DNA from: Octopus vulgaris
Taxonomy: Eukaryota
NCBI GenBank assembly: GCA_951406725.2
Contig: OX597820.1
Coordinates: forward strand, 106,516,001 to 106,580,000
Reading direction: 5' to 3'
DNA: 64,000 bases
A program made the position numbers and the translations under genes. This document shows positions 1 to 62,297 of the stretch, in pieces (positions within the stretch are counted from its first letter, which is position 1; the number at the start of each line of letters is the position of its first letter). The notes beneath the pieces were generated by a model. It was not told the origin of the DNA, made no database searches, and saw only the letters and a list, made by a program, of their open reading frames with translations.

Positions 1-2046
1 TCCTATCTTGAATTCCTCCGTTATTGCCTGGAGGACTATGATAAATAGAAGGGGGCTGAGGACTGAACCTTGGTGGACCCCTACCTCTACCCGGAATTCT
101 TCAGTGTACTCATTGCCAACCCTCACCTTACTTACAGCATCCCTGTACATGGCTTGCACAGCTCTCACTAACCATTCATCTATCCCTAGTTTCTTCATTG
201 ACCACCAGATAAGGGATCGGGGGGACCCTGTCAAAGGCTTTCTCCATGTCAACGAAAGCCAGGTACAGGGGCTTATCTTTGGCTAGGTATTTCTCCTGCA
301 GCTGTCTTACCAGAAATATAGCATCAGTGGTACTTTTCCCTGGCACGAAACCAAACTGCATTTCATCCAAACTAACTCTCTCTCTAATTAGTTGGGCTAT
401 GACCCTCTCCGTAATCTTCATTACCTGATCCAACAGCTTGATACCTCTGTAATTATTTATATCTAGGGCGTCACCTTTACCTTTGTAGCAGTTGACTAGT
501 ATGCTGCTACACCAGTCATTGGGTATGACTCCTTCGTGTATCACCTGGTTAACTATACGGGTGACTAGGCTATAGCCGACACCACCAGATATTTTGAGCA
601 TCTCTGCAGTAATTCCTGATGGGCCTGGGGCTTTCCCTGTCTTCATGCTTCTAATTGCCTTAACTACCAAGATACTGTCAACTCGGATAGCTGGTCCCTC
701 TATTGGGTCGACATTCAGCAGACTCTCTATCTCCCATTCATTTTCTTTATTCAGCAACCTTTCATAATGGCGTCTCCGAACCTCTCACTTTGCAACTCCA
801 TTTAGTGCAAGAGAACTATCATCCATGCTGACACATTTCTCTCCTACAACATCTCGATTCTCTCTCACACACTGTCTTGCAGCACGAAATACTTCAAGTC
901 TTTGATCCTCACGGCGCAGAACATTGGCAAATTTTTTCGTATTTGCTTCCCCTCTGGCTAAGTAAACCTGTCTCCTAGCTTCTCTTCTGGCAGGCTGATA
1001 CAATTCCCTGCTACCACCGTTCTTGCAGTCCTTCCAAGCCTGTCTCTTTTCTCTAATAGCCCTGTCTACAACATTGTTCCACCACCATCGAGAGGGGACT
1101 TTGCACCATCCACAGTGGTCAGTGGCTCTCAGCAGCTTGTCCCGTAGAAACCTCCAGTTGTCTTCTACACTATGTGAAGCTATATCCTCTTCTATTTCGT
1201 TAAAGGCTTCGAGTAATATGTCTCTAAATCTCTGTCCATTCGCAAAATCTTTAAGCTTCCAGACCCTTCTTTTCCATGTTAGTCATCTTCTGGGCGTCCA
1301 CTTAGATCCTAAAGTCACTAACTACCAGTCTATGTTGTGGGGTACAGTCTTCGCTTGGGAAGGTTTTGGCATTTATAAGCAGCTATCTTTCCCTTTTTCT
1401 GACGAGAATGTAGTCAATTTGGCTAGTATGTCTAGGTGACTAGGTGACTGATAGGTTTCCAGAAGTTAGTATTGCAAACCATAAGATCACTTGCATCGCA
1501 GAACTCCAGCAGCCTGGTTCCCTCCTCGTTGCGGGAACCATAGCCGTAGCCTCCATGTACGCCATGGAAGCCCCCTGTATGTTGTCCAACATGTCCATTG
1601 AAGTCACCAGCCACAGAAGAAGGTCCCTGTCATTCGTCTGCAGTAGGGTGTCATAGAATCGGTCTTTCTGTCCATCGAGTAGCTCCGATATAATGGTGAA
1701 GCACTAATCTAATCTTAAGTATTCTGTCGCATACTCTGACTACCTCAATTACCTTATCTACCCATTTTTCAGCAAGAAGTATACCAACGCCCCCGACCCC
1801 ATCAGTGTTCCCCACCCAGAAAATCTTGTACCTGCGTTCTTTGCCTGTGAGGAACCTAGCAGAACCTCCTCTCCACTTTACTTCTTGGATGCAACATATA
1901 TCAACACATCTCCGTTCAAGCATCTCAACAATCTCACTAGACCTACCTTTCAGTGTGCCAACATTGAGAGTGCCAACCCTAAGGGTGTGGGAGGGATGGG
2001 CCGGGATGGGCCCATGAGACCCTGGGACGGGGGACAGTGGCTTCAT
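1..2046 (-). mobile_element. RTE-clade LINE (APE endonuclease + reverse transcriptase), frameshifted; continues past the window start
   Basis: ORF pieces 1651-2046 (LRVGTLNVGTLKGR...CCIQEVKWRG), 1432-1614 (AGDFNGHVG) and 176-757 (KAPGPSGI, YKGKGD, NYRGIKLL, QFGFVPGKSTTDAIF, FVDMEKAFDRVP). These are typical EN and RT motifs, split by frameshifts and stops. Confidence 0.93.
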
Positions 2047-3190: not shown

Positions 3191-3871
3191 TAAAAAATTA
3201 GCAAGGTAAAAGTTTTTATTCATTTGAGGAGGATTGCTGGAAAACCATTGTTTCCCCCATTAAAACAACTAGTTGCTCACACAGCTGCCATATAACAAAG
3301 GGACTACAGGATGACAGTCAGCCAAAACTTTCCCTATGCTGTCTCTCTTCTTTCACCTCTTAGTGGGGTTAATTATCTTCATCTTTAGTTACAGTTTCTC
3401 ATTCGAACTACATAATACATTGTCGGATTAATTCAGTAGGGTGTTTTGAGGGAGATTTGGCTGCTATTTCTACCAGGTCTACCTACCATATAGACATCTG
3501 AACTTAATTTTTATTCACATTTTAAAATTTTATAATCTTTTCCATAAATCAACTATCGTAAAAATTTTCTACCATGACCTCACATTTTCTATGTATGTGT
3601 GTTTGTGTATCTTAAAAGACGTGATTAGACAGAGGTCCAATAGAATAGTTCTCAGAAACAGACTACATACAAATTCTTTCTTCACAACTCCTGAAGCTGT
3701 TTTCTGCAAAGATATTTTCACTTGTCCAGGCATTGCTATTACAGACAAATTAACAACAATTCGACTAGAGAGATAAACACAAACCACCTCATGCTGACTG
3801 CAAAAATCCCGCCAAATTAGCCAGAAAAACACACACACATCCATTTCATATATTTTCTTTCAATTTCTGCT

Positions 3872-5148
3872 TTCTTGGATGCTCTCGGCTGAACCAGAAA
3901 AACTTTTCTCATGAACCTCCTGCTCGCCAAAATTCACCAGGAAAATCGGATTGCCATAGCGGTTGCATTGTGGCAACTCTACTGCATGGTGGTCGTACGG
4001 CACACTCAGCCTTCCAATTACCACTAGATTTGACCAAACAGGAAAATCCAACTTGTAATGTTAGTCGTGGCTCAGCCATGGGGAATCTTCTCACTGAGTG
4101 CAGCCTTATCAATTGGGATGAGGCAACCATGAGTCATAAGGTGGCTTTTGAGGCGCTTGATCGGTCTCTTCAAGACCTGAGACACAATATGAGAGTGATG
4201 GGTGGAGTGACTGTTTTGCTTGCTGGCGACTTCCAACAAACTCTACCTGTCATTCCACAGGGGACAAGAGCTGATGAGGTAAATGCTTCCATAAAATCAT
4301 CCTACTTATGGCACCACATTGAGAAACTTCACCTGACTACAAACATGAGAGTTCACGTGCATGGCAATGAAAGCACAGCCACATTCTCAGCACAGCTTCT
4401 CGACATTGGTAATGGAACTGCAGCTGGTGATACTGATGGTTTCATCCATTTACCATTTGGTAATTTTGTGCCTACTGTGGATGATTTGATGTCTTCAGTT
4501 TTTCCTGACATTGCAAACCAAAGCCTTGACACAACTTGCCTACAAGGAAGAGCAATTTTGGTGCCTCACAATAAAACAGTTGACGCTATCAATAATAAAC
4601 TTCTCGATCTGCTTCCTGGAGAAAAACTCTCCTTCAAGTCCATTGACATGCATGAAAACCTGGATGATATGACCGTTTTCAGAACAGAATTCCCTAATTC
4701 CCAAATGCCCACAGGACTTCTGCCTCACGAACTCCATCTTAAGGTTGGCATGCCCATCATGCTGCTGTGGAATTTGGATACTCCAATAATGTGTAACGGC
4801 ACACGGATGATAATCAAAAAATTATACTCCCAAGTTCTGCAGGCAACCATCTTGAATGGATCGGCTGCTGGTCAAGATGTTCTTATAGCCCCAATGTCCC
4901 TCACTCCCTCCGATACAATCTACAAGTTTAAGCGGCTTCAATTTCCTATCAAACTCTCCTTTGCAATGACAATAAATAAGGCACAGGGTCAATCATTGCA
5001 AATGGTTGGTTTAAATCTCACAGAACAAATGTTCTCCCACGGTCAACTTTACATTGGATGCTCCTGTGTTGGCAGGCCACAAAGTCTATGCATTTGTGCA
5101 TCAGAAGGGAAAACGAGAAACGTTGCCTACAATGAAGCGCTCCACTGA
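3872..5148 (+). pseudogene. Helitron RepHel PIF1-family helicase domain, decayed; Rep domain absent
   Basis: Walker A is degraded to FLDALG*TRKTF (stop at 3890-3892), followed by a frameshift near 3967. ORF 3970-5148 then has WDEATM, GDFQQTLPV, CNGTRM, QFPIKLSFAMTINKAQGQS and FSHGQLY. Confidence 0.9.
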
Positions 5149-21243: not shown

Positions 21244-21375
21244 CTACAGCTTAATTGTAGATTCTATGTCTATCTTGATTTTTCCTAATGTCTTTTTCAC
21301 TCGAAGTGCTGTCAATCGTGCAGCTGGATGATGAAGCCAGCATTCACTCATTACTTTTGACATTTTACTCAAATA
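21244..21375 (-). CDS. BMPR1: BMP type I receptor, last coding exon (kinase subdomain XI, stop)
   Basis: ttgcag|[43 protein letters not shown]; phase 0 matches the previous exon. Confidence 0.93.
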
Positions 21376-22843: not shown

Positions 22844-22974
22844 ATGATCACTGACCCAGCGATTAGGAATAAGAGGCCGTTTCTTCTCAATACACACAAC
22901 CCTTTTAAGATCTTCATAGCTGGGATCAGGTGAGAGGTAATCATAATATGGAAGCTGAGCATCTTCAACAATTC
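22844..22974 (-). CDS. BMPR1: BMP type I receptor exon (kinase subdomain X)
   Basis: tttcag|(G)[43 protein letters not shown]|gtaagt. Confidence 0.95.
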
Positions 22975-26327: not shown

Positions 26328-26503
26328 CTTTATGAACACACCGACGTGCAATTTCCCATAGAACTAAACCAAGAGCATACACATCTGCCTGTTTGAATGA
26401 TTCAAAATGTTTCCTATTTATAGTATCATCCAATATTTCTGGGCTCATATACAATTTGGTGCCCTGTCGAGAATTCGGTGCAATATCCACTTCATTAGTT
26501 TCA
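26328..26503 (-). CDS. BMPR1: BMP type I receptor exon (activation segment, subdomains VIII-IX)
   Basis: ttgcag|(S)[58 protein letters not shown](G)|gtactg. Confidence 0.95.
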
Positions 26504-28110: not shown

Positions 28111-29151
28111 CCCACCCACTTCAGTGAAACTGAGTTCTAGAAGTGCTGTGTGTTCCACCCACACCTGACAAGAAAACTTTTCACGCACTCTACCCCAACA
28201 AACTAAACTAGATCTCTTCCTCACATTTCCTCTTTTCATACACTATGCTTATCTCTTGCTCCCCAATCCTCTCCTTACTACTCTTCTCACTGTATCATTG
28301 CTATTTTGTAATCCCCTACCCCTTGTATATACCCAGGTTTCACCAGTCACTGCATTCACCACCCCTACACTCAGTGCATCCAGGTGAAATCTCTACTCCC
28401 TACTCACACTCCATTTATATTATGATCCCCGTACCTTGAGGGTATGCCCGGGCATTTGCCATCATCTATGTCTCATTTATATTCTGAGTATGCCCTGGCA
28501 CTTTGCTACCATCTATCTCTTGCATCCTTGCTCTCTTCTACTCTCTCTCTTTCTCTTTCTTGCTCTTCATGTAGCCATGTATCTCCTCTACTGCAACACA
28601 TTCTTGATCATGCTCTCTTTCTATCTTTCTCTCTCTCTCTTTGACCAAGTAACCATGTATGGCAAGACACCTGTTTCTGTTTCTTTGTCACACTCTAACC
28701 ATTCACCATCTGGCACAAGATCACGTCCTCCAATGACCCCTCCCCTCTCAAAGGATCTTTGTCTTACAAGTTACTTGGTGACCCTGCCAGTACTGGTGCC
28801 ATGTAAAAAGCATCCAATCCATACTGTAGAGTGGTTGGCGTTTGGAAGGGCATCCAACTGTAAAAACCACGCCAAAACAGACAGTGAAGCTTGGTGAAGT
28901 CATCTGCCTAGCCAGCTCCAGTCAAACCGTCCAACCCATGCCAGCATAGAAAGCGGGCGTTAAATAATGATGATGATGACGTTTCAGCAATCAACCAAAC
29001 TATGTTTCATTGAGGCCTAATATGAGCTGAAGAATGTTGTCCAGAGTTGTCAGAATGCCAAAATTCAAACTTAAATGCATTCCATATCTAAGAAATAATC
29101 ACGGAGTTATCTCCCATCTTTTATTTTAATTCCAAATCTGTTTATTTAGAC

Positions 29152-29401
29152 CAGGAGTGGCAAATTTCTTCGTGGAATCGTTAATAGTTTAACAGCTCCA
29201 CACCATCATGTGAATTTCTAAAATGAAATTTAAAAATATAAATGAAATATTTCTTGATTTATAAATGATAATTTCTTTTGTTGTTTTGTGTCACTACTGC
29301 TTTTTAATAGTTATTTAAAGAGATTTTTTAGGTGTTCATGAACCTCTAAAATAACCTCACAGGCCCACAGGGATCAATATTAACCACTTTGCCGACCCCT
29401 C
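29152..29401. mobile_element. Possible hAT-like MITE
   Basis: Imperfect termini CAGGAGTGGCAAA / TTTGCCGACCCCTC. Confidence 0.4.
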
Positions 29402-31884: not shown

Positions 31885-31990
31885 CTAATATATTTGACAC
31901 AAAGCCCAAGATCTGCTATACAACATGTTAGGTTTTTCTTCACCAAAATATTCTTACTTTTTATGTCTCGATGAGCTAATGCAGGTTTAC
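31885..31990 (-). CDS. BMPR1: BMP type I receptor exon (catalytic loop and DLG)
   Basis: ttcaag|(G)[34 protein letters not shown](S)|gtacag. Confidence 0.95.
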
Positions 31991-33369
31991 CTTGAAGAGA
32001 ACAGAAGTAAATGTTTTTATCAATATCAACAACAATGCAAGCAACAGAAGAAGAGTAATAAAGAAAAATAATTAATAAATTAGCATCATAACAATCTAAC
32101 TATACTATCATCAAAAAATTACTGTCTCTTCCATCTGAGCCAGACAGACATGCACTCACATTTGAACTAAAACAAAATTTCTAACTTCATTAGACTAAAA
32201 CTTGGATTGTGAACATACATTTTAAAACAAAAATTCTGCCCTCTTAACATTAGATATGCTCAATTGGAAACAAAATTTCACTAATGTGGAATCTTCTATA
32301 TAGCTAACCAAGCTGTTAGAAATAATAGCCAAACCTCTCTGCCCACAGGCATCTTTAAAAAAAATTATACATTGGACAAAGTAGTTTCAGATATGCAAAA
32401 TATAAGATGGTCACAACAGTAACATGTTTGAGTTTAGGCCTGCTCAGACAGGGCTAATCTGAGGAGCTCACTGCTAGATGCATTTCAATGTACAGCAATT
32501 TACTTTTTCCTTTCTTTAACTTGGTAGATAATATCAATTACATTCACTTGCTATATGGACCATATGGATCTTTTAATGCACATATTTTAACAAAAATACT
32601 GCATCGACTTATTTTATAGCTGTTGTGCCTTTCCTGGTATTATCATCATCATCATCATCAATTAATGCCATCTGTCTTCCGTGCTGGCATGGGTTGGAAG
32701 GTTTGACAGGATCTGACAAGGCAGAGGACAATTTCAAGCTCCAATTTCTTCTTTGTTTTTTGTTTTTTTTTACAGCAAGATTCCTTTCCTAATGTCAACC
32801 ACTTTACAAAGTGTACTGGGTGCTTCTTTCATAACACCAGTACTAGTGAGGTCACCAGATAACGCACAAGACAAGACCCCTTCAAGTGAGTGGGAGTATA
32901 GGCAGAGAAGGAGGTAACATTATGCAATGACAGGTAGGTTAGATAAAAACATTAAATATCATGAGTTCTATGACTGTTAATGGAGTTAATTTTTCTGACA
33001 TTGACTGAAATAGAAAAATGTTTCAACTAATAAATAATATACATTGCTTTATGAATTTTCATGAGGAGTTTACTTTTTGATAGATTATAAAATGCTATTT
33101 TAAACAGAACTGCATTTGCACATTATTCTACTTTTACATAGTCTAATCACATCAATATTAGATATTTAAATGAAAATAGATGTCCATCTCTGAGTGTGTA
33201 TGAGAGACACAGACTGAGGTTAGTAGAATAATGTGTTTTGCTTATGGGTGTATATTAATAACCAGAGCATATGTGTAATTAAAACATTTTAACTTTACAG
33301 CTCATGTACATAAAAAAAAAAAAAGGAATCATCAAAGAGAAAAAAGAAAATTAATGAACAAGGACTAAC

Positions 33370-33549
33370 CTTTTGCTCCATATATTTCTGCATGAAGGAA
33401 TGCAAGACCTGCTACTGTTGAGTGAGCTAAGCGCATCATATCAACAGCATTCAATGTGGTTGCCCTAAGGAAATCATATAGTGACCCATGATCATGGTAG
33501 TCTGTTATGAGATATAGCTGTGTACCTTTGATATCAGCAGCTAGAAATC
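33370..33549 (-). CDS. BMPR1: BMP type I receptor exon (L45 loop, subdomains V-VIa)
   Basis: ttttag|(G)[59 protein letters not shown](G)|gttagt. Confidence 0.95.
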
Positions 33550-35395
33550 CTAAAAGACAAGAAGAGAAAGAGGAAAGGTTACTTTCATTATGTAACATAA
33601 GCCTACTCTTTATAATGAGCTCTTTCTACTGAAAGACAAGCATCTGGTGAAAAGAAAAGTGTATAATCAGCAGAATTCCAATATATGACCAGCTCTTATT
33701 TTCATCAGCTTTTTGGATTGTCCTCATCATCATTGTTTTAATGTCCACTGCTCCATGCTTGCATGCATCAGACAATTATAAATTATACTGTGCTCCTGGT
33801 GTCAACAGTGATGTGCTATGATTAGGGTTGAGGATGTTCTAGTATTTGGCAATTTTAGTGTTTCTGATTTGGTACAGAATCCGTTTAACATAAAATGTAA
33901 CAACTGATTTTTGCTACTTGGGTATGGAACATTGCAGAAACTAAAACAAAAAAGTATAAAAATGCTCATAATTACCAAATTAAAAACTAAAACTATTTTG
34001 TTATAGATACAGAGAAAATCATTTCTGCTTTATGTCATAAGAAGAGAGATAACCCAATTTCTTCACTTACATTTTCATTTACTTAACTATTTTTCTCTCA
34101 AATTGTGTGTTATATGTGTTCAGGTCTTGCTTTGAGCATTGCGTTGTACTTTTTTTTTATTCTTGTTGAGTTTGCAGGAAGGTTCAGTGCCCATAACGTT
34201 CGTTGACCATCCAAGACCAGAGAGCTTGATGCTGCTAATGTTTCATTTAAACTACTGCAGGTCAAGACCTGCTGGCAAAATAACATGAACAGGGAGATTC
34301 TAGAGGGATGATGGTGCGGGGAGAGAGGAGTGGGGTAATAATAATGGTTTATGTGGGGATGAGGGGGTTGAATGCACCAAGACTGAGAAGAGATGGAAAG
34401 ACAAGTGGATTGCAAGTATTTGAGTGGTGGATGTATGGAACAGAGGCTATTAGATACAATGCAATACACATATGCATACACAAAGTGCATGCATGTGGGT
34501 GTGTGCATTTGTGTGTAAGTGAGAGTGTGCATGCCTTCAGTGCCAAATCATCCATATCCAATCAACCCAAACAATCTATATCATCCATAGCACCTGTTTT
34601 ACAACTATGGTGTACTGGGCCATGAATATAATGAAGTGTCAGTGAAGCCTCCAACAGCTGCTGCTATTCTTTTATAATAAATACAATAAGAAAAACAAAA
34701 TTAAAATACAAGGTACTACTTTAGTCCATCATGACATAGTTCTTAGCTCAGACCAGACCTGTATCAAACATTCTATCTAACACTAACAACTTTGACAATT
34801 CACCAAATAGAAGAGGGATTTAATTTTCTTTGGTGGGTACAATTTACAATCTAGTTTAAAGTCTGTAACCTAAAGCTCCACAGTTTAAGAAATAGTGAAT
34901 GGTGATATTGTCTTTGGTTTGAATACTGAGAATGTAGTTGATTTTTCAAAGAAGTTGGGGGTTTTTTTTTGTTGTTTTTTTTTTGTATAAAAGGAGAAAA
35001 ATCCACTGCAATAATTGTTTTATTTCAGTCCCTCCTAGATTGTTGACCTGCAATAGCTTAAACAAATTGTTAACTGCATCAAGGTCTCAAGTCTTGAAGG
35101 GTCAACAAAGGCTATCTTCCTGCAGATTCAACAAAAGCAAAAAAAAAAAATTTTTTTTTAAATATAAAGCAATGTTTGCAGCAAAACTTGAACATATAAC
35201 ACACACAATGAAGAGAGCAATGTATCACAATGTGTCAATAACAAAAACCTATCTCCTATAAGGTGCTCTTTTTCAGGCTTCTGAAACATGTTTCTGACTC
35301 CATCTTGTATGCTATCAAAACATCAGTTACAGAGTAATCTTGATATTTACAACAAACTATAATTTACCCATAATATGTCTTTACAAACAGCTGTA

Positions 35396-35977: not shown

Positions 35978-36695
35978 TACACTTTTGTACTTTGGAAGAG
36001 ACATGCTGCCCATAAAACATGCACACATTGGTCAAATTTCATTACAGTAGTTATATTATCAGTTAACTATATAATAAATTAATTAATTGGTATGTCTCAA
36101 AGATTTTTCTTCACACCCTGTGACCAACCATTAGATTCCATAATAGAAACTAGGAGCAAGGAGTGTGTTATAGCATGAAAGAAATATGTGAAGTCAGAGG
36201 CTGTGATGAAAGAACTTGATTAATCAATTAATATATTAATTAACCAAATGTCTAATTAACTGGTAGTAAAACTGCAACGAAACACAACCAGCAACCAGTG
36301 TGTCTGCTTTATCACCAACATGACACTCCCAGAGGATAACAATATGTGCTTCAAGAATGTTGCAAAACAAAACAAATGATGAAATGAAATGAAATGGGGA
36401 GGGGGGAGTGTGTGTGTGTGTGTGAAAATGAGCATGTATCAATGAATGTTTGTGTTTAGAAAAGTGAAATGTGTGGGTGTGAGTGAAAGACAATGTATGT
36501 GTGTGCATGCGTTAATGTGTATGAGAGAGTGAGAGAGAGATAGTGTGTGTGTGTGTGACTGACAGAGAAAATGTTTATGCATGAGATTGCATAAACACGT
36601 GCCCGGATAAATAAAATAATTGTCAACTACTAACGACAGTAATATGAGGGAGACGACCAGCTGTATATGTGTGTATAGACAGACACAGACATAAA

Positions 36696-37435
36696 TCATC
36701 ATCATCATCATTTAACGTCCGCTTTCCATGCTAGCATGGGTTGGACGATTTGACTGAGGACTGGCAAACCATATGGCTGTGTCAGGCCCCAATCTGATCT
36801 AGAAGAGTTTCTACAGCTGGATGCCCTTCCTAACGCCAACCACTCCAAGAGTGTAGTGGGTGCCTTTACGTGCCACCGGCACAAGGGCCAGTTAGGCGGC
36901 ACTAGCAACGGCCACGCTCAAAATGGTGTTTTTTACGTGCCACCTGCACAGGAGCCAGTCCAGCAGCACTGGCAACGACCTCGCTCGAATGTTTTGTTCA
37001 CGTGCCAGTAAGGTGACACTGGTAACGATCATGCTCAAATGGTGCTTTTTACATGCCACCAGCACGGAAGCCAGACAGCTGCTCTGACAGTGATCCTGCT
37101 CAGATGGAGCTGTTGGCGCTCCACTGGCACGGGTGCTAGTCATCGAATTTGGTTCAATTTCAATTTCACTTGCTCCAACAGATCTTCGCAAGCAGAGTTT
37201 AGTGTCAAATGAAGGGAGGTTGGTATGGGTGCCAGTCGTCAAATTTGGTTCGATTTTGAATTCAATTTCGATTTCACTTGCCTCAGCAGGTCTTCGCAAG
37301 CAGAGTTTTGTGTCCAAAGAAGGAAAGTTATGCATAAAGTGGGATGGCTACATCCCTGGTAAAGGTCACAGGTTATGGTCTCACTTCTCCTGCCAGGTCT
37401 TCTCACACACAGCATATTTCCAAAGGTCTCGGTCA
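36696..37435 (-). mobile_element. Long copy of the family-1 SINE-like repeat with internal tandem units
   Basis: Same tail and core as 2858-3190. Repeated ACGTGCCA units and a duplicated TCTTCGCAAGCAGAGTTT block. Confidence 0.75.
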
Positions 37436-38574
37436 CATTATTAAATACAATTTAACACAGAAAAAAAATTAGGCCTAGTGCTCTATATCTCTAGTTTCAC
37501 ACCTATTGCTTGCCAAGCAACCTTTTTACCAATTACACTACTGAGTGCCTGCCTTTTCCTCATCACACATTTAATAATATAGATAATTATACACCCTTTA
37601 ACTGTATTGTTTAATCTCTAAATGTGGCTCATTTGCTTCACAAATAATTCATTCAATCACTTAGCTGTAGCACATAATATACTGAAGTATCACACTTCTA
37701 TTTGATATTTGTGATAAGAATTAACCTTGTTAATATGGTAAAAGTTATGAATTAAAGTTTGGGAAGGGTGTCAAACAAGGAGATACCATCTCTCTACATA
37801 TGATGATCATCATCATCATTTAATGTCCATTTCCATGCTGACATAGGTTGGATGGTTTGACAGGAGCCGACCAGCTGACACACTGCTCAGGCTCCATGTC
37901 TGTTCTGACATGGTTTCTGTGGATGGATGCTCTTCCTAATACCAACCACTTTACAGAGTATACTGGGTGCTTTTATGTAGCACCAGCACCCACAAGCCTG
38001 CTAGAATCATTCAGCTGAAGAGGGATGTAGGTGATATACCTGTATGCAAGACAACCACAATTTTACTTAACTTAACAGACCTTCTCAAGCACAGCAAACT
38101 GCCAGAAGTCTTAGTCCCTTGTCATCTCCATGAGACCCAATGTTTGAAGATCCTTTCTCACCACTTTGTCCTACATCTTTCTGGGTCTACCCCTTTCACA
38201 TGTTCCCATCACAATTAGAGATTGGCACTTCTTTATGCAGCTGTCCTGATCAATACACATCACATGACCATAACACTACATCAAGAGCATGAGATCCAAT
38301 TGACAGAACATAAAACACATAGCACAATATAGGAGATGCTGATGAAGGGTTCATCATGTAACTAACTGAACAAATACCAAGTTAAAAGAAAAAAAAATGA
38401 ATAGTGACAGTACAGGTAGTAGGGTCCAGCTTAGCAAGAACCCAGTGGTTGGAATAAGTAAAATAGAAAAACAAGATATGTGCATAAGTACATGCACACA
38501 CACACACACACACACATACATACATACATACACACAAATATACAAGAGCCATATACCATGTTGCTTCATAATAA

Positions 38575-39936: not shown

Positions 39937-40129
39937 CTAATATATTATCATGTCTAAGCAGCACTGTTTGGTAAAGTTCAGTTTCTCTGAACCAACTATC
40001 TTCTTCTGTGGTAAAAAATATCTTCACTGCAACATTTTCCCCTCTCCACTTGCCTTTCCACACCTCACCATACCGACCTTTTCCTATACTCTTAATCAAA
40101 TATATTTGCTTCGCTATTGTGCGCTGAAC
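39937..40129 (-). CDS. BMPR1: BMP type I receptor exon (end of GS region, kinase I-IV)
   Basis: ttgtag|[64 protein letters not shown](G)|gtaagg. FFTTEE is characteristic of ALK3/6/Tkv. Confidence 0.97.
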
Positions 40130-42169
40130 CTACAATGAAAAAGAAAAGCTTTTATGAAAATTATCAATGACAAGAAATTTCAATTCTATAATTTTTCTTT
40201 TTCTCAATTATTTTTTTTCAATGTGAAATTCTAATTTAATATATTTTTTTATAAATTAAAATTAGAAGGCAAAGATTTTTAATTATAAACTTCAAAAGAG
40301 AAAAAAAATTTTCATGGACATTAGAAAACTTCCTTTGTTTTCATCTTTTCTTTTCTCACTTCCATGTGGATTTTTTTAATATATTTTTTTCTATAAATTA
40401 ATATTGTTGGGTAGAGAGTTCTATTATAGTTCCATTCACATCTAGGATGCTTTACAGAAATTCCAAACTGACCTTGGTACATGATTGGTATTTATTGTAT
40501 ATTGTCAACCCTAGAAAAGGGCAAAAGTCAAAGCCTGCATCAGTAGGTTTTGATCACAAAATGTAAATGGACGTAGTTGGATACTATAAGGCATTTTACC
40601 TGAGATTCTAAATATTTTACCAATTCACATTTATAATATTTTTTCTGAAATGAAAAGTTAAATTTATACTCAAAAACAATAAAAATATTAAAAAAGAAAT
40701 TGAAAATGAATCATTATTTCAATTTTTATGGTTTGAATGATTTCAAGTTTTAAATTCTGTGTGATTTCCTTACAACAAAAACATGTTCCTGAGCAAGGTA
40801 ATACTTCCCCCATGACCTGACACAACCAGGAAGATTAAACCTAAAGGTCACTGCTTGTATGATGGTGACGCTCCTTTACAACTGTCACACAAATTCAAGA
40901 CAAAGTGACACAAACACAAACACACACACACACACACACACACACATAGTGGACTTCTTTCAGTTTCAGTCCTCAGAAACTTCACATGGTTTTGGTCAAG
41001 CCAGTGCCAGAAAACACTTGCACAAGATGCAGTGGTACTGAACCCAAAACCACATAGTCGGGAAGCAAACCATGTAACCCTTTAGCATTCAGATTATTCT
41101 GTCAAATGTAATGCTTATTAATTACCATTCTTTTGAATCAATCATGCACTGTCTTGTAGTTTTGAGATTTCAATGGTGTGATTGTTTACTTTTAGTATGA
41201 CATTGTAGGATAGGTGTAAGAGACCAAATTTGGCCAGTTTGAACATTAAACAAGTAGTATATTTTGGCCAGATATGGCCAGTTCAAATGCTAAAGAATTA
41301 AACATATAATCATGTCTGCACATATCAGTATAAAGTGAGTGCGTGTATGCAAGTGTGTGTGTAGTCAGTTAATATGATGTAATTAATTAAATTCACTAGT
41401 CAGAGATGTAATTGTTTATAGATGTAGTAGAAACGGCTATAGTCAATTTGACAGGCAAAAGTTTGCTTTGTCTTGGTCAGTCATTATTATGCACTCACTT
41501 GTATTGACAGCCAATTAAATCCTGGGTGACCTTTCAGAATAGAACTGCAGAGATGATACTCAACTGCTGCATCCACGAGGAAGTAGGTAAGAGTGAATGT
41601 GTGTGCATGTATGTGAGAGAGCATACATGAGGGTGTGTGTGTGTGTGCTACAATATATGGAGGTGCAGTATTTTTTATCTTTTACTTGTTTCAGTTATGG
41701 TGTGCTGCTTCAAAGGGTTTTTAATCAAACAAACTGGCCCCAAACTAAACCCCAAAACCATGTGGTTGGGAAGCAAGTGTCTTAATCACACAGCCACACT
41801 CTAGTACCCATAAGTAAGTATAGGAGGTAAAATATACATGTTTTTATTAATTTATGTTTGGTTCTATGAATAGTCAGATAGTGTAAATATTGAAGTACAC
41901 CATCTGTTTTGTAGGGGTGGGGGAAAGGATCAACTTCAACAAAGTTTAGTTTTAAATGTTGTACATAAAAGGGCTCAAAATCTGTAAATAAAATAATTCA
42001 ATAAATAACTATTGATCAGTAAAATGTGTAGTCATATGTGGGTCTATGTTTTTGTGAAGGAGATCAGCATATTTTGATTTTACCAGAATATTCAGGATGG
42101 AATCAATTAACTGCTTCCCGTCAAAACTGTTGGTCTTGCAAATTAAATACAACTGCTTTGAAGTATCAG

Positions 42170-42815
42170 AGAAAATAACAAGCAGTATTTTTTCCAGCAG
42201 TTTATGTTGTGAGTTCAAATCCCACCAAAGTCAAGTTTGCTTTTTCATTCCCCTGGATATCTTTAAAAATGAAGTACCACCCTAAGATAATAAAGGTAGA
42301 TGGTATCAGTTAACCCTCAAAACTGCTGGTCTCTTGCCTCAGTTAGGAACAATTATTATTTTTATTAAGGTGGCAAGCTGGCAGAATCACTGGCACATTG
42401 GACAAAATGTTAAATGGTATTACTTCTGGATCTTTATGTTTTGAGTTCAAATTATGCTAACATCAACTTTGCCTTTAATCTTTTTGGGATAGATAACAAA
42501 GTACCAGTCAACTACTGGGGCTGATATAATCAAATAAACCCCTTCCCCTAAAATTGCTCACCTTGTGTCAAAATTTGAGAGAATTATTATTATTATTACT
42601 ATTAATAATAATGTTTAGTGGCATTTTGTTCATCTTTACATTTTGAGTTCAAATTCTGCCACGGTCAACTTTGCCTTTCATCTTTTCAGGTTCAGTGAAA
42701 TAAATAACAGTAAAGCACTAGTGTTGATGTAATCAACTAGACCTCTCCCTCAAAATTTCAGAATTTGTCCCTATAGTAGAAATAATAATAATAATGATTA
42801 TTATCATCATCATCA

Positions 42816-42846
<31 letters not shown>

Positions 42847-43320
42847 TAAGGTAGCAAACTGGCAAAATCTTTAGCATACCTGACATAATGCTTAACAGCA
42901 TTTCACTCATCTTTGTTCTGAGTTCATATTCTGCCAAGGCTAACCTTTCATCCTTTTGAGTACCAGTTAAGAACTGCGGTCAATGTAATCAATTTACCCA
43001 CTTCACCCAAATTGCTGGCTTTGTGTCAACATTTGAAATAATAATTATTATTATTATTATTATTGAAGGCAGTGAGCTAGCAGAATTGTTACTGTGCCTG
43101 ACAAAATATTTAGTGGCATTTCTTTTAGTTTTACGTTGAGTTCAAATTCCATCAAGGTCAACTTTGCCTTTCATCTTTTTAGGGTTGATGAAGTAAGTAC
43201 CAAACACTGGATTCAATGCAATCAACTAACCCCCTCCCCCAAAATCTCAGGTCTTGTGTGCCTAGAATAGAAAGGATTATTATTATCATTATTATTGCTG
43301 TTATTATTATTACTATTACC
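42170..43320 (+). mobile_element. Head-to-tail array of about five family-3 SINE copies separated by (ATT)n
   Basis: Recurrent AAGGT/CGGCAAGCTGGCAGAA...GAGTTCAAATT...GTACCAG...AAAATTGCT-like units, each ending in ATTATTATT. Confidence 0.75.
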
Positions 43321-43511
43321 ATTATTTCCTTTGATGTTCTAAGAAGAAGAAATGGTAGATATTGACATTTGTATTTCTCAAAAGTATATTATTAATGTTG
43401 TTAATGAAGTGAAATGGTTTCAACCAGGACTGAAACCATGTCACTCAATCAGTTTATTACTACAGAACCTAGTAAGCATCAAGAGCAGCACCCACAAATT
43501 TTTTAACTCAC

Positions 43512-43635
43512 CAAAAGTGGTAAACCTGATCCACTACCAGAACTGTGGTTTATCAAGTCTTTAATACATTCTCCTGGGTGTATCTGATTTTCTTCATCCA
43601 TGTACTGGGATCTTAGTAATCCTGTTCGACAAAAT
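43512..43635 (-). CDS. BMPR1: BMP type I receptor exon (juxtamembrane + GS box)
   Basis: ttgcag|(R)FCRTGLLRSQYMDEENQIHPGECIKDLINHSSGSGSGLPLL|gtgagt. Confidence 0.95.
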
Positions 43636-43899
43636 CTGCAACAAAAAAAAAATATTTGAATAAAAACTGGATTTAAAAAATGAACCTTTCTGTTAGTGTA
43701 TTTTTCTTGAAATACATTACCTTCATTTCAATTAATTTTGAAAATAATAAAGAATTTAGTAAATTAACTTTTGTCATTACCAACCTGGGATAAAAAATTA
43801 GCATAAAATTTTTATGGAAAGTTTTCATTTAGATTCCTTTAAAATAGCAAATTTGTATCACAGAATCAGGAGTTTCAGATGGGTTGCTATCAAAAGAGC

Positions 43900-44150
43900 T
43901 CTCTTACTTGTTTCAGTCATTTGACTGCAGCCATGCTGGAGCACCGCCTTTAGTCGAGCAACTCGACCCCGGGACTTATTCTTTGTAAGCCCAGTACTTA
44001 TTCTATCGGTCTCTTTTGCCAAACCGCTAAGTGACGGGGACATAAACACACCAGCATTGGTTGTCAAGCAATACTAGGGGGACAAACACAGACACACACA
44101 TATATATCATCATTGTTTAACATCCGCTTTCCATGCTAGCATGGGTTGGA

Positions 44151-50193: not shown

Positions 50194-50302
50194 CTTTGAT
50201 GACCCCAGTGCATTGCTATAATTAACAATATTACACAAAATAATAGTGAAACTGCAACAACAATTTTGCAGGTATTGTTAAAGTTGGTATCAGTTTGAGG
50301 AC
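50194..50302 (-). CDS. BMPR1: BMP type I receptor exon (transmembrane helix)
   Basis: ttttag|(G)PQTDTNFNNTCKIVVAVSLLFCVILLIIAMHWGHQ(R)|gtaagt; phases 1 and 2 fit both neighbours. Confidence 0.9.
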
Positions 50303-52069: not shown

Positions 52070-52190
52070 CAGGGATTGGAGTTGTACTCCGTTCTATGAA
52101 TGTGGGCTTCAAATCTCTATTGCAGTAATCTTCCCCATCACAACATGCTACAGTCTGAGGGGTAACATGAGGAACCAAATCCCCTTTACA
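52070..52190 (-). CDS. BMPR1: BMP type I receptor exon (ectodomain Cys box)
   Basis: attcag|CKGDLVPHVTPQTVACCDGEDYCNRDLKPTFIERSTTPIP(G)|gtaagt; CC-x5-CN box. Confidence 0.95.
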
Positions 52191-62121: not shown

Positions 62122-62297
62122 CTGAAGGACAGTGCTTTCATGTGGAGGCAAACACCCAAAACTCCAAACATCAACTGCTATATTGTTTTCTATTTTTTCT
62201 TCTATTGCAGTGAAACATTTGCTTCCTTCTTTTGCAAGGCAAGAATTATTGACGACAGCTCCTGCACAAGGATTGCAGAAACACAATAATGAATCCA
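62122..62297 (-). CDS. BMPR1: BMP type I receptor exon (ectodomain N-half); first coding exon found in the window
   Basis: tttcag|(x)DSLLCFCNPCAGAVVNNSCLAKEGSKCFTAIEE...SFGCLPPHESTVLQ|gtgagt. With the next exon it gives the 10-Cys Tkv-like ectodomain. It starts in phase 1, so an upstream signal-peptide exon is needed. Confidence 0.92.

Follow-up and report, generated by a model that had tools for sequence, protein, structure and literature searches.

The receptor gene and its exons

The window, the whole 64,000-nt stretch of Octopus vulgaris DNA analysed here, carries on its minus strand a gene for a BMP type I receptor, of which ten exons, running from 62297 to 21244, join with zero mismatches into residues 31-510 of P0001, an annotated BMP receptor type-1B-like (BMPR1B-like) protein that is identical in O. 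vulgaris and O. sinensis. The window did not yield the first coding exon. The ligand-binding (Activin_recp) domain is encoded by an exon for its first part (62122..62297) and another that holds the cysteine box (52070..52190). These are followed by a hydrophobic exon for the transmembrane helix (50194..50302), a GS box exon with the SGSGSG and LPLL motifs (43512..43635), and a kinase N-lobe exon carrying the Gly-rich loop, VAVK (K241), and the αC glutamate E254 (39937..40129). Downstream lie the kinase exon with a shortened L45 (β4-β5) loop (33370..33549), the catalytic loop exon (31885..31990), with HRD at 31973-31965 and DLG at 31913-31905, the activation segment exon (26328..26503), matched with 0 mismatches by contigs of the sets X15 and X16, a C-lobe exon (22844..22974), and the last coding exon with the stop codon (21244..21375), all on the minus strand.

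Domain searches place a cysteine-rich ectodomain at residues 33-113 (PF01064, 33.4 bits against a cut-off of 20.9), a GS domain at 188-212 (PF08515), and, downstream of it, a complete kinase at 217-494 (PF00069), with a single transmembrane helix predicted from residue 135 in the hydrophobic exon 50302-50194. A quick tree of 25 rows keeps the cephalopod sequences apart from the ALK1/2 (support 100) and ALK4/5/7 (99) clades and places them within an ALK3/6 group (94), a placement with which a provisional 46-row tree agrees. Judged by sequence, the gene is a cephalopod ALK3/6 (BMPR1) orthologue by descent, 63-64% identical to its chiton and Solemya orthologues, and in the ESM Atlas every cluster returned was BMPR1B-like or related. 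Domain order, GS box, catalytic residues, fold, and tree position are shared with BMPR1A/BMPR1B (ALK3/ALK6), Thickveins, and mollusc BMPR1, whereas the cephalopod protein differs from them in an L45 loop that is four residues short and in the substitutions A360C, H320F, and I272L, to which octopods add R382L. Two features of BMPR1-type receptors are thus lacking, the full-length L45 loop and, in octopods, the invariant Arg of GTKRY, and because of the short loop the protein is classed as an ALK3/6 orthologue by descent rather than as a canonical Smad1/5-docking member.

Two related gene models deviate elsewhere: in P0002, from O. bimaculoides, sequence without relation to the GS-box exon takes its place and the final exon is absent, probably through gene-model error, and P0121, an annotated 491-aa O. 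vulgaris isoform, diverges past residue 474 and misses the final part of the kinase C-lobe.

The L45 deletion and its distribution

By the textbook account, the L45 loop determines which Smad a receptor selects. When the octopus protein is aligned with human BMPR1B (3mdy), the sole gap in the kinase is one of four residues at this loop, which reads DIKG-TQL; the missing residues may be placed as TGSW or as GSWT, the two placements being equivalent. An earlier sequence-only reading of the window had claimed a deletion in the L45 loop of a BMP type I receptor, with GSWT missing, and the alignment bears out both points. It had also described AADIKGTQL as in frame and mid-exon. The frame and the exonic position stand: nucleotides 33541-33518, on a minus strand that it left unstated, read GCT GCT GAT ATC AAA GGT ACA CAG, or AADIKGTQ. 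The final Leu codon, however, lies beyond them at 33517-33515, and the loop sits near the 5′ end of the exon rather than in its middle. The shortened hairpin, D275-I-K-G-T-Q-L281, spans 33515..33535 (minus strand), and the deletion point falls at 33524/33523 or, equivalently, at 33521/33520. The exon itself (33549-33370) is 180 nt long, 12 nt below the full-loop exon, with AG/GT boundaries and an intact frame.

Two sets of contigs, X15 and X16, come from two studies under two species labels and are taken to be RNA by guess, not by record. Both span the L45 exon without a mismatch or gap (X15 record 18 at 33368-33550; X16 record 25 at 33368-33548). The X16 contig also contains exon 26503-26328 and can be read as a spliced product, because the 104-letter spacer between the two exons fits the intervening 106-nt exon less two shared letters. 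Assembly error is excluded by these gap-free spliced contigs together with the identical loop in O. bimaculoides, Argonauta hians, and P0003, so that the assembly error named as a refuting outcome in the sequence-only reading did not materialise. Since the short loop recurs in four named species and in P0003, an 80%-identical relative, the chance that it is an artefact of assembly or annotation is negligible. Word shares of 0.93-0.95 in the DNA runs, of which X1-X3 may be the source, are unable to exclude a 12-nt difference and were not taken as proof. Among the pieces listed for runs X10 and X14, none lay over the L45 exon. A micro-exon or alternative splice adding the 12 nt is likewise ruled out, as no intron interrupts the loop within its exon and a search of both strands of the window found no stretch coding for GSWT. 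The deletion is confirmed as genuine in octopus BMPR1.

The short loop is present in O. vulgaris/O. sinensis (P0001), O. bimaculoides (P0002), A. hians (P0122), and P0003. Among the 122 proteins from the BMPR1 search, it is four residues short in 5/5 cephalopod-type rows and in 0/117 other BMPR1 rows, of which 115 have the canonical loop, one is a single residue short, and one is a duplicated gene model. A common lophotrochozoan trait, an eventuality that the earlier reading had raised, is ruled out by this count. Its statement that the length of the loop is strongly conserved is borne out more widely: in addition to these 115 of 117, the loop is canonical in 133 of 146 divergent representatives (146 mapped of 150), in 62/62 mapped metagenome loci (80 fetched), and in 116/116 mapped ALK1/2-type matches (120 examined), and a degenerate short-loop pattern gave 0 matches in metagenome contigs. 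The remaining divergent representatives comprise nine with longer loops, two at one residue short, one at three short, and one at four short. The last is P0171, a long-branch receptor of the tsetse fly Glossina brevipalpis without the SGSGSG box, and the row at three short belongs to a 10-member long-branch cluster (P0146/P0272-P0280), in which the loop is short in 10/10 and P0280 has HGD for HRD. Odd, divergent receptors thus do carry short loops, but no second case was found in a conservative ALK3/6 among the sequences compared.

In the 25-row quick tree, P0003 groups as the sister of the octopod sequences (support 100); it may belong to a squid or cuttlefish. The lineages of octopus and squid separated more than 250 million years ago. 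If P0003 is indeed a squid or cuttlefish protein, the deletion would be older than that split; on the aligned proteins, it is older than the divergence of Octopus from Argonauta and than one deeper divergence. The alignment that the sequence-only reading had proposed for dating the deletion thus revealed a loop shared across cephalopod lineages, whereas the canonical paralogue that it was also meant to reveal was not seen among the best 120 of 4479 matches. That the trait is common to cephalopod lineages, and that the invariant Arg of GTKRY carries a second lesion, had both been missed. The receptor gene is already annotated, and the L45 deletion is apparently undescribed: no published report of it was found in searches confined to the open literature.

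Predicted fold, catalytic residues, and selection on the kinase

A structure model built on 119 diverse rows resolved the N-lobe, with block pLDDT of 91-98 over residues 211-300, whereas one built on 60 close rows left it unresolved (pLDDT <50 over 243-288) and was set aside. In the former, predicted strands 271-277 and 280-286 are joined by a two-residue G278-T279 turn that replaces the L45 loop. Model residues 209-505 superpose on residues 200-500 of TGFBR1 (1py5) over 297 of 301 residues, with an rmsd of 1.0 Å and a Z score of 45.3, and Foldseek agrees, the fold matching TGFBR1/ACVR1 at about 1 Å. Because of this superposition, the deletion is predicted to trim a protruding hairpin without effect on the fold, giving a normally folded type I kinase with the L45 loop cut to a turn, in a model whose confidence is low at the GS stretch (190-206).

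The catalytic set is present (K241, E254, H336-R337-D338, K340, N343, D356 of DLG, and the APE glutamate E387), and GxGxxG, VAVK, HRD, DLG, and the GS box are all intact in O. vulgaris, as had been noted from the sequence. The accompanying suggestion of a catalytically competent receptor is in keeping with the predicted kinase fold. D275 is retained, and of the BMPR1-type loop residues I276, K277, G278, and T279 remain. In ALK2, the Asp at the base of L45, Asp-269, is described as touching the GS helix, and L45 is counted among the family-defining insertions, according to the available part of PMC3481300. D275 is its octopus counterpart, so the GS-contacting Asp is kept.

All cephalopod-type rows share A360C, H320F, and I272L; residue 360 is Ala in 117/117 other BMPR1 rows, and its codon here (31901-31899, minus strand) places a Cys two residues past DLG. 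R382L, encoded by a Leu codon at 26454-26452 (minus strand) in place of the invariant Arg of GTKRY, occurs in Octopus and Argonauta, while Arg is found in P0003 and in all non-cephalopod rows of both the BMPR1 (117/117) and ALK1/2-type (116/116) sets. P0003, which keeps Arg382, has changes of its own at conserved kinase sites (G226A, R224K, K342T, and G379S). In the alignment, R382 maps to ALK1 Arg374, Trp and Gln variants of which are reported, in the accessible part of PMC10779873, to reach the cell surface and bind BMP9 and yet to fail to signal. By orthologue numbering, R382 would correspond to human BMPR1A R406, and R406L, found homozygous in a syndromic patient, slightly raised pSmad1/5/8 and lowered p-p38 when overexpressed, as far as the available text of PMC6825850 describes. 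The evidence from these ALK1 and BMPR1A variants points in both directions.

The ratio of kinase to ectodomain divergence in the octopods (0.43 and 0.41) ranks first and second among 28 mollusc-type rows (range 0.22-0.43), and the octopod ectodomain is not accelerated. Between P0001 and P0003, the GS region is 100% and the N-lobe 93% identical, and C-lobe identity, at 0.82, is the same as the median for 12 mollusc pairs with similar ectodomain identity. The GS and C-lobe figures give no support to strong relaxation of the kinase, which appears from these comparisons to be under purifying selection and not decaying.

This conservation, along with the number of copies detected, bears on the suggestion of the sequence-only reading that the gene encodes a decoy or a non-Smad paralogue beside a canonical ALK3/6. 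The intact ligand-binding domain, the lost Smad loop, and the R382L of octopods would all suit such a role. However, the kinase and GS box are conserved, the latter at 100% with P0003, the gene takes the place of the cephalopod ALK3/6 in the tree, and a second cephalopod-named ALK3/6, with or without the full loop, was not found among the best 120 of 4479 matches (8000 candidates scored), a set with a cut-off of 563 bits where other mollusc orthologues score 565-719. On these sequences, the receptor is likely the only cephalopod ALK3/6, and the suggestion of a decoy or paralogue, which we consider very improbable, did not hold up. BAMBI has no kinase domain, unlike the octopus receptor with its full conserved kinase and GS box. 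BAMBI itself, a type I-like pseudoreceptor, phosphorylates no Smads, according to the available text of PMC5569090.

Possible routes from BMP to Smad1/5

Altered coupling to Smad1/5, as the sequence-only reading proposed, may follow from the deletion, and the form that this would take can be weighed against what is described in other animals. L45 pairs with the L3 loop of the Smad and is the receptor's R-Smad-selecting element, as the accessible parts of PMC6953019 and PMC7175140 have it, and exactly this part is lost from the structure model. In zebrafish, BMP signalling is described as needing both Bmpr1 and Acvr1 with only the kinase of Acvr1 essential, and the loss of Bmpr1 as being rescued by kinase-dead and GS-mutant Bmpr1 (PMC8054026, available text). 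Furthermore, one type I receptor is reported to be able to phosphorylate and activate ACVR1 (PMC5832415, in part). In cuttlefish, beads carrying Noggin produced ectopic suckers in 8/12 limbs, in a study whose available portion leaves Smads unmentioned (PMC6581508); BMP signalling thus works in these animals, and some receptor must relay BMP.

The most economical reading is a ligand-capturing ALK3/6 paired with a Smad-phosphorylating ALK1/2. In this explanation, to which we lean with confidence just short of even, the deletion is fixed in a cephalopod ALK3/6 that likely binds BMP2/4, is predicted to have a folded and probably active kinase, likely docks Smad1/5 poorly, and would rely on an ALK1/2 partner. 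Ligand would be captured in a mixed complex of ALK3/6, ALK1/2, and type II receptors; the shortened L45 loop would have cost the receptor its Smad docking, with ALK1/2 phosphorylating Smad1/5 in its place; the retained GS box and kinase could serve the activation of ALK1/2 or non-Smad outputs; and octopods may later have lost the substrate-side Arg (R382L) under the changed role. A stricter form of the proposal, tentative and held with rather less than even confidence, is a hard-wired split in which cephalopods, having lost the Smad-docking loop from their only ALK3/6, use it to bind ligand and activate, and send all BMP signalling to Smad1/5 through ALK1/2.

As for the partner itself, no mollusc-named row was found among the best 120 of 4121 ALK1/2 matches, in a search by locus exon query that is uninformative for presence or absence; searching through metagenome loci and one locus exon returned only echinoderm, vertebrate, and non-mollusc lophotrochozoan rows. 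ALK1/2 also goes unmentioned in the material checked from three cephalopod papers (PMC4361686, PMC9068888, and PMC11202396).

Several observations stand against reliance on a partner. The kinase is without marked decay, the GS region and C-lobe are conserved between P0001 and P0003, and the conserved GS box counts against a pure scaffold because GS-mutant Bmpr1 rescued in zebrafish. Additionally, I276, K277, G278, and T279 are kept, P0003 keeps its Arg, and R406L did not lower pSmad1/5/8. The strongest rival holds that Smad1/5 is still a direct substrate of the receptor, for whose docking the phosphorylated GS box and the I-K-G-T left in the loop would be enough, perhaps helped by a matching alteration of the L3 loop in cephalopod Smad1/5. 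This is a real possibility, though well below an even chance. The complete GS box identity and 93% N-lobe identity with P0003 in the absence of clear kinase decay, the intact catalytic residues, and the apparent standing of the gene as sole ALK3/6 in animals that need BMP2/4 signalling are all consistent with direct phosphorylation, as is the report, in the available part of PMC6825850, that R406L left pSmad1/5/8 unabolished. Against it, the length of the loop is near-invariant in every set examined, the protruding hairpin is gone in the predicted structure, and the remaining short loops sit on long-branch receptors with further lesions (P0280 and P0171).

Engineered L45 mutants of ALK5, reportedly described by Yu in 2002 and by Itoh in 2003, are said to lose Smad activation and to gain no breadth; like the octopus receptor they keep a kinase and have a damaged docking loop, but they are laboratory point mutants of a TGF-β receptor, whereas the octopus has a BMP receptor in which a naturally arisen deletion is fixed. 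Their behaviour speaks against the idea that loss of the selectivity loop made the receptor promiscuous, with BMP activating both Smad1/5 and Smad2/3. In favour of promiscuity, L45 is described as branch-selecting rather than catalytic (PMC6953019 and PMC7175140, in part), and ACVR1 phosphorylated SMAD2 in vitro, so that selectivity is not absolute (PMC5832415, in part); we regard it as unlikely, and both it and the decoy are less likely than reliance on an ALK1/2 partner or direct signalling.

Two known systems resemble the preferred arrangement of a ligand-capturing ALK3/6 beside ALK1/2. In the zebrafish Bmpr1/Acvr1l pair, which responds to BMP2/7, Bmpr1 is needed and Smad phosphorylation by Bmpr1 is dispensable, according to the available text of Tajer et al. 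2021 (PMC8054026). The likeness is a proposed one, and zebrafish Bmpr1 has the full loop and signals alone in other contexts, whereas in cephalopods the change would be built into the receptor itself. Transphosphorylation of ACVR1 by TGFBR1, in which a type I kinase activates ALK1/2 and then Smad1/5 (Ramachandran et al. 2018, PMC5832415, in part), suggests by analogy a possible use of the octopus kinase; TGFBR1, unlike the octopus receptor, keeps its L45 loop and, as that source describes, its own Smad2/3 output.

A natural deletion in what is apparently the only cephalopod ALK3/6 offers a test of whether Smad docking requires the loop, and it poses a second question, left open in the available text of PMC8054026, namely the role of BMPR1 where it need not phosphorylate Smads itself. 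Either outcome would be informative: a receptor that signals normally would be an exception to the L45 rule, whereas one that fails to signal would mean that a lineage noted for its anatomical innovations has rewired a core developmental pathway, and experiments on BMP in squid, cuttlefish, and octopus would have to be read differently.

Mobile and repeated DNA is also found in the window. A 459-codon open frame at 3769-5145 (plus strand) with the PIF1 helicase domains PF05970 and PF21530 is likely a piece of a Helitron-type transposon, and a reverse transcriptase fragment at 179-784 (minus strand; PF00078) is likely a LINE remnant. Very high contig depth in four runs at about 28585-29201, 36606-38456, and 40925-44000 marks high-copy repeats in the introns of the receptor gene.
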